A stretch of DNA of 32,000 nucleotides from Candidatus Saccharimonadota bacterium (lineage in GTDB: Bacteria > Pseudomonadota > Alphaproteobacteria > Rickettsiales > Anaplasmataceae): positions 300,001 to 332,000 of the forward strand of contig NZ_CP092368.1 in the NCBI RefSeq assembly GCF_025021925.1. The letters run 5' to 3'. How positions within the stretch are numbered: the first letter of the stretch is position 1; each line of letters opens with the position of its first letter. A program made the position numbers and the translations under genes. This document shows positions 22,938 to 24,033 of this stretch, in pieces. The notes below the pieces were generated by a model. The model did not search any database. It was given only the letters and a program-made list of their open reading frames with translations, and had not been told where the DNA came from.

Positions 22938-23010
22938 GGGAGTGTAGCTCAATTGGTAGAGTACTGGTCTCCAAAACCAGAGATTGTAGGTTCAAGTCCT
23001 ATCGCTCCTG
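22938..23010 (+). tRNA. trnW: tRNA-Trp (anticodon CCA)
   Basis: A 73-nt cloverleaf folded by hand: acceptor GGGAGTG/CGCTCCT (G1-U72 and U6-G67 wobbles), D arm GCTC-AATTGGTA-GAGT, anticodon arm CTGGT-CTCCAAA-ACCAG, T arm GTAGG-TTCAAGT-CCTAT, discriminator G. The 3' CCA is not encoded. It forms a local GC-rich island in the canonical tuf-trnW-secE position. Confidence 0.9.
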
Positions 23011-23030
23011 CATTATTGGTATCATACTAA

Positions 23031-23231
23031 ATGTTAAAAAGTTTTTACGTTTTTCTATATGAAATACGACAAGAAATGAAAAAGATAGTTTGGATCAAAA
23101 AACAAGAAGTTTTCTCTTCTTTATTGATGGTAATAATGATTATATTATGTTTCTCAACTTTCTTTTATTTTATAGATTTTTTATCTCTGTATATCATTAA
23201 GGCTTTATTTGGAATTGTTTATGGAAAATGA
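23031..23231 (+). CDS. secE: Preprotein translocase subunit SecE
   Basis: 66-aa single-TM ORF with EIRQEMKKIVWIKKQEV (compare SecE E.R.ELKKV.WP.R.E), in the conserved position ahead of nusG. Confidence 0.85.
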   Translation: MLKSFYVFLYEIRQEMKKIVWIKKQEVFSSLLMVIMIILCFSTFFYFIDFLSLYIIKALFGIVYGK

Positions 23232-24033
23232 ATATAAATGGTATGTCATTAAAGTAAATTATGGATGTGAACATAAAATTCAAGAATTGATAGATAGTAC
23301 GATATATTTTAAGGAAGTCTTTATTCCTTTTTCCTATCATATTACACATGCTATACAAGAACAATGTAATGCATACATACATATGAATTTATGTGATGAG
23401 AGTACAAAAATTTTAAGTCAGTATCATGTGGGTGATTTCACAGTGATATCAGAGAGTGAAATTCATCTTATACGTCAGGACTATAATAAAAATAAATGGT
23501 ATATTTTAAGAGTAGCTGCTAATTATGAAGAGAAGGTACGAAGACATATTTTAGAGAATACAACAAGATTAAGAATTAATCAGTATTTTAAGGAAGTATT
23601 TATTCCATATGATGAAATAAATGATTCTCAAACTAAATATAAAAAAAACCCTACACGCAAAAAGTGTTTTCCTGGTTATGTGTTTTTATATATCAATTTA
23701 TGTGATGAAGTATTAAATTTTATCAACAGCATACCAAAATCTCTTAAAGTATATGGATTTTTAAAAAATGGTCATGTGCCAAAAATCATTTCAGAAGATG
23801 AGATCTATTTAGTATGTCGTGCACTACGTAGCGCTCAAGAAGCAAAAAAATTAAGTTTTGGTTACGAAAAAGGCGAAAAGATCAAGATTAAAGAAGGTCT
23901 TTTTCAAAATTTTACTGGTAAAGTAGAGATGATAAATGAGGAAAAGAAAACTATGAATGTAGAAGTCTCAATTCTAGGCAAGCCTACATTAATAGAACTT
24001 GATTTATCTGAAGTAGACAAGATAGAGGATTAA
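23221..24033 (+). CDS. nusG: Transcription termination/antitermination factor NusG, elongated by an in-frame duplicated NGN-like domain
   Basis: The C-terminal two thirds is a standard NGN (KWYILRV...YFKEVFIP...FPGYVFLYINL...ISEDEIYLV) plus KOW (FGYEKGEKIKIKEGLFQNFTGKVEMINEEKKTMNVEVSILGKPTLIELDLSEVDKI). The first 86 or so codons repeat the NGN landmarks (KWYVIKV...YFKEVFIP...YIHMNLCDE...SESEIHLI). The ATG at 23221 overlaps the secE stop by 11 nt; the TTG at 23209 is the ORF-track alternative. Confidence 0.85.
   Translation: MENEYKWYVIKVNYGCEHKIQELIDSTIYFKEVFIPFSYHITHAIQEQCNAYIHMNLCDESTKILSQYHVGDFTVISESEIHLIRQDYNKNKWYILRVAANYEEKVRRHILENTTRLRINQYFKEVFIPYDEINDSQTKYKKNPTRKKCFPGYVFLYINLCDEVLNFINSIPKSLKVYGFLKNGHVPKIISEDEIYLVCRALRSAQEAKKLSFGYEKGEKIKIKEGLFQNFTGKVEMINEEKKTMNVEVSILGKPTLIELDLSEVDKIED

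Follow-up and report, generated by a model that had tools for sequence, protein, structure and literature searches.

In the 32,000-nucleotide stretch of DNA analyzed here (positions 300,001 to 332,000 of contig NZ_CP092368.1, referred to as the window), the nusG gene encodes a protein of 270 residues with the domain order NGN'-NGN-KOW. This architecture is real and unusual. On sequence evidence, which carries the homology and with which the predicted fold is consistent, the first 90 residues (NGN') are a whole NGN-like domain, placed directly in front of a complete NusG. NGN' was present in every Wolbachia NusG found and was found nowhere else in the searches made. In our judgement, the overall reading that it stems from an old NGN duplication and is now an accessory module, not a second clamp binder, is about evenly balanced. 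The window protein matches, at 100% identity, the NusG that NCBI lists for the Wolbachia endosymbiont of Howardula sp. (wHow) on a contig of 553,558 bp; the wHow genome (553 kb) has been described as the smallest among Wolbachia and as a subset of the others (PMC9515626). The gene and its parts are as follows.

23221–24033, + strand: nusG coding sequence, NGN'-NGN-KOW, 270 residues plus stop, matched by TIGR00922
23221–23490, + strand: NGN' (residues 1–90), the trimmed, acidic extra NGN copy, delimited by BLASTP, PF02357, hhalign, AlphaFold2 (AF2), Foldseek and charge
23491–23847, + strand: canonical NGN (residues 91–209) with the β-hairpin and the CFPGY motif, delimited by PF02357, the AF2 elements, Foldseek, FPGY and charge
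23848–24030, + strand: linker and KOW domain (residues 210–270), from TIGR00922 coverage and AF2
23869–23952, + strand: Pfam KOW motif (residues 217–244), 16.5 bits, under the cut-off

An extra NGN domain precedes a complete NusG

The nusG equivalog model TIGR00922 matched the window protein with 174.3 bits, compared to a cut-off of 135.7, and aligned residues 93–268 to profile positions 1–172. A complete NusG is thus already contained in the last 180 residues, with the first 90 as an addition. The cut-off of the Pfam KOW model is 22.3 bits; the region that it scores below this value is aligned by TIGR00922 and is modelled by AF2 as a five-strand barrel.

The original prediction held that the additional part arose by a degenerate, in-frame tandem duplication of the NGN domain, and pairwise comparison, shuffling, profile alignment and the predicted fold all bear this out. 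BLASTP aligned residues 1–90 to residues 91–270 with an E-value of 2e-9 and 29% identity. The Smith-Waterman score between residues 1–90 and the following NGN is 97, compared to 28.6 ± 4.8 for 2000 shuffles (z = 14). As anticipated, the Pfam NGN model PF02357 matches the protein in two stretches: the canonical NGN scored 56.6 bits over residues 92–195, and residues 1–90 alone scored 23.0 bits, barely over the cut-off of 22.2 and covering profile positions 2–39 only. To represent the domain across the genus, we used an alignment and profile of 22 Wolbachia N-terminal segments (A2); 17 of the 22 segments matched PF02357 at E < 0.01. When aligned by hhalign with a profile of 133 non-Wolbachia NGN domains, A2 gave a probability of 98.4% and an E-value of 4.4e-15 over 87 of 90 columns. 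Compared with the sequences of the PDB, its top matches were the E. coli NusG NGN chains, which aligned with A2 positions 5–94.

The AF2 model of the full-length protein has a predicted local distance difference test (pLDDT) score of 82.4. For residues 1–90 alone, the pLDDT is 82.8 and the predicted template-modelling score (pTM) is 0.74. The elements of NGN' follow the order β-α-β-β-α-β-α, as in the adjoining canonical NGN. In a Foldseek search with the isolated domain, NusG NGN took the first two ranks in the PDB, 6xav_L with a template-modelling (TM) score of 0.64 and 6gov_G with one of 0.62; the structural comparison proposed for residues 1–90 thus returned an NGN-like predicted fold. With the full-length model, Foldseek matched the canonical NGN-KOW part of NusG only. 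At the junction between the two domains, helix 78–90 runs straight into strand 92–98 with a pLDDT of 88–92, and the length of the junction is constant in all but one of 23 aligned full-length Wolbachia sequences.

The similarity of the two domains can also be seen in the DNA. All of the repeats pointed out beforehand are present, including the 258-nt spacing that separates 23227–23256 from 23485–23514. Two other repeat pairs encode peptide motifs shared by the two domains.

23305–23327, + strand: DNA motif for YFKEVFIP in NGN', partner of 23584–23606
23584–23606, + strand: DNA motif for YFKEVFIP in the canonical NGN, partner of 23305–23327
23378–23399, + strand: DNA motif for (H)MNLCDE in NGN', partner of 23687–23708
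23687–23708, + strand: DNA motif for (Y)INLCDE in the canonical NGN, partner of 23378–23399

The members of the first pair are identical at 22 of 23 nucleotides, and those of the second at 20 of 22. The 23-nt motif occurs at two sites only in the 32-kb window (23305 and 23584), with 0 occurrences expected from 100 shuffles. Although the DNA-level similarity described in the original prediction is real, it is no sign of a recent event. Synonymous codons specific to each copy are kept across 29 genomes in the YFKEVFIP and LCDE motifs; for instance, CCT is used in most NGN' compared to CCA (or CCG) in most NGN, and GTA/GTG compared to GTT. The two copies therefore evolved independently, and neither gene conversion nor a recent duplication can account for their identical DNA. 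They are similar at the DNA level because the peptide motifs are conserved and the codon choice is AT-biased.

NGN' is found throughout Wolbachia and originated within the Anaplasmataceae

The Wolbachia NusGs retrieved by homology search are all 272–284 residues in length and cover the whole query. We also scanned the locus in one genome per GTDB species, which gave 28 Wolbachia loci besides the window (29 sequences in total) from symbionts of filarial nematodes, of arthropods and of the plant nematode Pratylenchus (wPpe), plus wTex. In 28 of the 28 further loci, the divergent wPpe and wTex included, the ATG is at the same place just before the secE stop, and none of the 29 nusG sequences contains an internal stop. 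Comparison with orthologues places the extension in every Wolbachia NusG found and not in Ehrlichia, Anaplasma or Neoehrlichia, whose single-NGN NusGs are 179, 186 and 185 residues in length, respectively. Among the matches listed, there was no single-NGN NusG of more than 200 residues, and the only longer NusG from outside Wolbachia was an ankyrin-fused protein (P0067, 329 residues). When 1.84 billion representative proteins were searched by HMMER for matches to the NGN' profile, only seven were found, which are Wolbachia NusGs (P0065 included), the single NGN of P0066 and of P0067, both from related metagenome-assembled genomes (MAGs), and Neoehrlichia NusG.

P0065 (WP_333023550.1; partial, 267 residues, labelled Wolbachia) is a very divergent double-NGN NusG. 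The hairpin region of its canonical NGN carries a far larger insertion, with ~25 extra residues before PGY, so the hairpin loop is still changing within the genus.

The scores of the NGN' profile point to a source close at hand. The profile gave 65 bits with P0066, 35–52 with the canonical NGN of Wolbachia, 43–49 with Ehrlichia, 39–49 with Anaplasma and 38 with Neoehrlichia, and at most 24 with other alphaproteobacterial NGNs. In a neighbour-joining tree based on ~93 shared columns, NGN' is monophyletic (100% bootstrap) and nested in the Anaplasmataceae NGNs (100%). Together, these scores and the nesting rule out a foreign origin. Fusion with a specialised paralogue was rejected as well, as all paralogue models fell far under their cut-offs on the window NusG (LoaP 86.6 vs 125, UpxY 70.9 vs 100, RfaH 30.5 vs 144.5 bits). 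NGN' nests in the Anaplasmataceae NGNs and shares a reading frame with the canonical NGN immediately downstream of it. The sequences are thus most simply explained by a tandem duplication inside the gene that predates the divergence of the sampled Wolbachia.

The duplicated gene lies in a familiar setting. The local gene order in the window is fusA, tuf, tRNA-Trp, secE, nusG, rplK, rplA, rplJ, rplL and rpoB, and the position of nusG between secE and rplK is common to Ehrlichia, Neoehrlichia and related MAGs. The features immediately upstream are as follows.

22938–23011: tRNA-Trp (CCA), between tuf and secE; ordinary, as in many bacteria
23031–23231, + strand: secE, 66 residues, from the list of open reading frames; Pfam SecE matches the orthologous upstream gene in related loci

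As originally described, the ATG at 23221 overlaps the end of secE in the usual way: the overlap is 11 nt, equal in length to that in Ehrlichia, Neoehrlichia and one related MAG (L030). The overlap is the ancestral arrangement, and its constant length suggests that a conserved translational coupling is older than the duplication. The expectation that the whole 270-residue protein is made also appears sound, since the ATG is conserved, internal stops are absent and the ratio of non-synonymous to synonymous substitution (dN/dS) is below 1; the protein is probably translated in full.

Three host "proteins", P0042 (Ceratitis capitata), P0043 (Callosobruchus chinensis) and P0051 (Dictyocaulus viviparus), are entries of public databases that consist of Wolbachia tuf/nusG/rplK fragments, and P0043 spans the whole of NGN' (146 bits). 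Lateral transfer to the hosts, or contamination, is the probable explanation.

NGN' is constrained, trimmed and acidic

Across 163 genome pairs, dN/dS is 0.20 for NGN', with its synonymous distance near saturation, compared to 0.10 and 0.09 for NGN and the KOW region, respectively. Among 23 pairs of closer genomes, the three ratios are 0.44, 0.115 and 0.078. The mean pairwise amino-acid identity is 60% for NGN', 80% for NGN and 79% for the KOW region. NGN' is under purifying selection, with the ratio below 1 as had been expected of a maintained domain, but this selection is clearly weaker than that on the rest of the protein. Ten residues of NGN' are invariant in A2 (W7, Y8, L23, Y29, F30, Y52, M55, C58, S61 and L65), and ten further residues are at least 90% conserved. 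The conserved residues include polar ones, namely E4, K6, E17, K31, D59, E60 and S61.

Compared to the adjacent NGN, NGN' has lost ~20–25 residues in total. The alignments agree with the earlier observation that the first copy is shorter and has no β-hairpin segment: ~7 residues are missing at the end of helix 1 and in the loop, and in place of the β-hairpin between strands 2 and 3 there is a short and variable loop, modelled at low pLDDT (residues 36–47). In wHow, eight more residues are gone (the "PGFCSxES" segment) where a normal NGN has its "YGFLK" strand, in keeping with the extreme genome reduction of this strain. NGN' is 90 residues in length in wHow, 95–98 in most Wolbachia and 88 in wPpe and wTex. 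The wHow domain is therefore the shortest but two; relative to most Wolbachia, it is shortened by 8 residues, and those of wPpe and wTex by 10.

In RfaH and NusG, the β-hairpin contacts the β gate loop. Contacts of NGN domains with both the clamp helices and the gate loop have been reported (PMC7819879), and the substitutions F65L and Y68H reportedly lower the binding of NusG to the elongation complex (PMC5314768). The E. coli FPGY motif (F65-P66-G67-Y68) falls in an insertion when aligned to NGN' by hidden Markov model (HMM), and opposite E-x-C-E/N in the profile-profile alignment; by both alignments, NGN' has no equivalent of the hydrophobic patch (F65, Y68) implicated in engaging the elongation complex. 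The canonical second NGN retains both CFPGY and the hairpin. The charge of the extra domain is changed as well. NGN' is acidic in 17 of 17 Wolbachia sequences, with a net charge of −3 to −10 and an isoelectric point (pI) of 4.4–5.6, whereas the adjacent NGN, like the NGN of relatives, is basic, with net charges of +1 to +9. In the window protein, NGN' has a net charge of −7 and a pI of 5.2, and the canonical NGN has a net charge of +9.

Possible roles of NGN'

The comparisons show that the NGN-encoding segment was tandemly duplicated within the gene in the lineage leading to Wolbachia. The upstream copy kept the ancestral start codon and the 11-nt secE overlap, and the downstream copy, followed by the usual KOW, kept the β-hairpin, the FPGY patch and the basic surface. 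After trimming, NGN' is predicted still to fold as an NGN, having lost FPGY and turned acidic. On our reading, the second NGN and KOW would do the canonical work of NusG, including the contacts with the β' clamp helices and the β gate loop and those of KOW with Rho or S10. NGN' would be a rigidly attached accessory module, tuning how its basic neighbour engages the elongation complex. It may act by charge-complementary packing on NGN (masking or autoinhibition) or, alternatively, through an extra contact of NGN' with RNA polymerase beside the NGN site. An accessory or regulatory module is most likely what NGN' represents. A more specific form of this proposal is doubtful in our view, namely that NGN' is a genus-specific regulator within an essential and universal transcription factor, an acidic pseudo-NGN that would pack on, or compete with, the basic DNA- and polymerase-facing surface of NGN and thereby gate NusG loading onto the fused-subunit polymerase.

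Several points weigh against an accessory role or against parts of the evidence behind it. Non-synonymous evolution is 2–4 times faster in NGN' than in NGN, and the conserved residues of NGN' are largely core ones common to NGN, which fits selection for foldability alone. The Foldseek E-values of the isolated domain are marginal (0.017–0.03), with other small α/β, ferredoxin-like folds close behind. In the neighbour-joining tree, the grouping of NGN' with Wolbachia NGN has 34% bootstrap, too low to fix the sister of NGN' within the Anaplasmataceae. The case that NGN' is translated is one of conservation only. The first two of these points would also suit a folded but functionally inert relic, held in place by the start codon and secE coupling of an essential gene, which we consider possible but rather unlikely. 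As NGN' carries that start codon and the translational coupling to secE, a relic would not be easily lost; selection would keep the frame open and the domain foldable and soluble, so that NusG is not poisoned. In favour of a relic, the dN/dS of NGN' exceeds that of both NGN and KOW 2–4 fold and reaches 0.44 in the less saturated pairs, and the invariant residues other than S61 belong mostly to the hydrophobic core shared with NGN. The domain is also eroding in frame, as judged from the 8 residues missing in wHow and the 10 missing in wPpe and wTex, and an acidic surface would be favoured by solubility alone. However, NGN' is kept in 29 of 29 genomes over the deep divergence of Wolbachia, even under the extreme reduction to 553 kb, and no lineage has removed the domain although in-frame deletions do happen. 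The fixed length of the NGN'-NGN junction, the conserved polar residues (E4, K6, E17, K31, D59, E60 and S61) and the charge reversal, consistent in 17 of 17 sequences, also speak against an inert relic.

The original prediction implied that NGN' is a second clamp-binding module, and drew attention to the fused β-β' polymerase of this genome. The rpoB frame of the window runs without a stop over 1943 codons, from ~26170 as far as the end of the window (32000), so rpoBC is fused here. Such a fusion is known for Wolbachia and for Helicobacteraceae (PMC7483510). A second functional module for binding RNA polymerase, at the clamp helices or another site and perhaps as an adaptation to the fused β-β', would draw on three points: NGN' is truly homologous to NGN and is predicted to fold like one, the Wolbachia polymerase has the fused subunit, and a fused-rpoBC lineage has acquired two different N-terminal NusG additions. 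The other addition is that of P0067 (L032:3180-4169, from Logan SRR23946949), in an Anaplasmataceae MAG. This NusG consists of ankyrin repeats, NGN and KOW; its N-terminal repeats are recognised by Ank_2 (28.1 bits) and Ank_4 (30.2 bits), both over the cut-off, and its gene sits in the housekeeping locus secE-nusG-rplKAJL-rpoB, on one contig only. With NGN' in Wolbachia and ankyrin repeats in P0067, the N-terminus of NusG has thus grown twice among the sampled lineages with fused rpoBC, a sample too small for a conclusion. In Ehrlichia (L033) and Neoehrlichia (L034), rpoB and rpoC are not fused, and NusG has a single NGN. Against a link with the fusion stands MAG L030 (GCA_031546805.1; L030:3122-4980), of a related lineage and sister to the MAG of P0067 (72% identity over six proteins), which combines a fused RpoBC of 2769 residues with a plain NusG of 181 residues. 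Fused rpoBC can thus exist in the absence of NGN' and does not depend on it, which rules out a strict coupling of the two: the fused subunit noted at the outset is present, and its connection with NGN' is weakened. Helicobacter likewise combines fused rpoBC with a NusG of ordinary length. The domain itself does not look like a clamp binder either. With neither hairpin nor FPGY patch, and with an acidic character in place of the basic one of NGNs, it is unlikely to be one, and the implied second module did not hold up in this respect. We accordingly regard a second polymerase-binding site, at the clamp helices or elsewhere, as quite improbable.

An artefact or an untranslated remnant would be an assembly or annotation error, or the result of translation starting at an internal GTG. 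In-frame GTG codons do exist at 23428 and 23443. They lie inside NGN' (residues 70 and 75), so that a start there would give no canonical N-terminus, and strongly conserved peptide motifs with dN/dS below 1 stand upstream of both. Moreover, the same architecture, with a conserved ATG and no stops, is present in 28 independently assembled genomes, and the 11-nt secE/nusG overlap is the ancestral arrangement. An explanation of this kind is very hard to sustain.

Significance of the double-NGN architecture

Wolbachia NusG sequences have been public for years and are annotated plainly as NusG. In searches that covered 8 million full texts, we found no description of a double-NGN NusG and no remark on how long the NusG of Wolbachia is. 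The paper on the wHow genome is silent on nusG (PMC9515626), and a survey of the transcription factors of Wolbachia notes no more than the presence of a single NusG copy (PMC7397232). Where the diversity of NusG has been reviewed, the example given for an added domain is domain II of Thermotoga (PMC7819879).

An NGN domain duplicated in cis and fixed throughout a genus is an unusual change to the core of NusG, and it persists even in a genome of 553 kb. If NGN' is functional, it would represent a natural experiment in tuning the interaction between NGN and the polymerase; if it is inert, it would clearly exemplify how a duplicated domain can be retained because an essential gene begins with it. 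Since Wolbachia is targeted in anti-filarial therapy and underlies mosquito-control programmes, a part of an essential protein that is specific to the genus is also of practical interest. Were the gating by an acidic pseudo-NGN true, it would represent a control of NusG loading known from no other bacterium, and a Wolbachia-specific feature for anti-filarial targeting.

Comparison with known systems

Residues 91–270 of the window protein correspond to the housekeeping NusG of E. coli, Ehrlichia and Anaplasma (TIGR00922, NGN-KOW, ~180 residues); they likewise form a complete NusG with FPGY, the hairpin and KOW. The gene order tuf, tRNA-Trp, secE, nusG, rplKAJL and rpoB is also shared. Different from the window protein, the housekeeping NusGs have no NGN-derived front domain of 90 residues. 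The ankyrin-fused NusG of P0067 is also extended at its N-terminus, occupies the same operon position and comes from a relative with apparently fused rpoBC, but its added part consists of ankyrin repeats and is not an NGN copy.

RfaH, LoaP and UpxY also arose by duplication and divergence of NusG, including changes in the exposure of the NGN; in RfaH, the NGN site is autoinhibited by KOW. These paralogues are separate NGN-KOW genes, whereas the duplicate in the window comprises the NGN only and lies in cis on the housekeeping protein. If NGN' were indeed a pseudo-NGN gating the access of its neighbour, it would recall region 1.1 of sigma70, which is likewise acidic, or the autoinhibited state of RfaH. 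A positional and speculative analogy may also be drawn with the Spt4-Spt5 NGN heterodimer and the acidic N-terminal region of eukaryotic Spt5, where a second small module or acidic region likewise lies beside the NGN; archaeal and eukaryotic NGN homologues are accompanied by such a module or region (PMC7819879). Spt4, a zinc-finger protein, has no sequence or fold relationship to NGN'.

The NusGs of Thermotoga maritima and Aquifex aeolicus, which also combine a housekeeping NusG with one extra globular domain (domain II), provide the nearest precedent for an accessory role. Domain II interrupts the NGN itself, at the hairpin region, and does not derive from an NGN. Compared to it, the extra domain of the window protein is N-terminal and NGN-derived, and the full-length model superposes poorly on Aquifex NusG (TM 0.34–0.39). 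In Thermotoga, domain II is reported to support recruitment and to stabilise the complex of NusG with RNA polymerase (PMC7819879); the likeness between domain II and NGN' would thus be one of role, not of ancestry.

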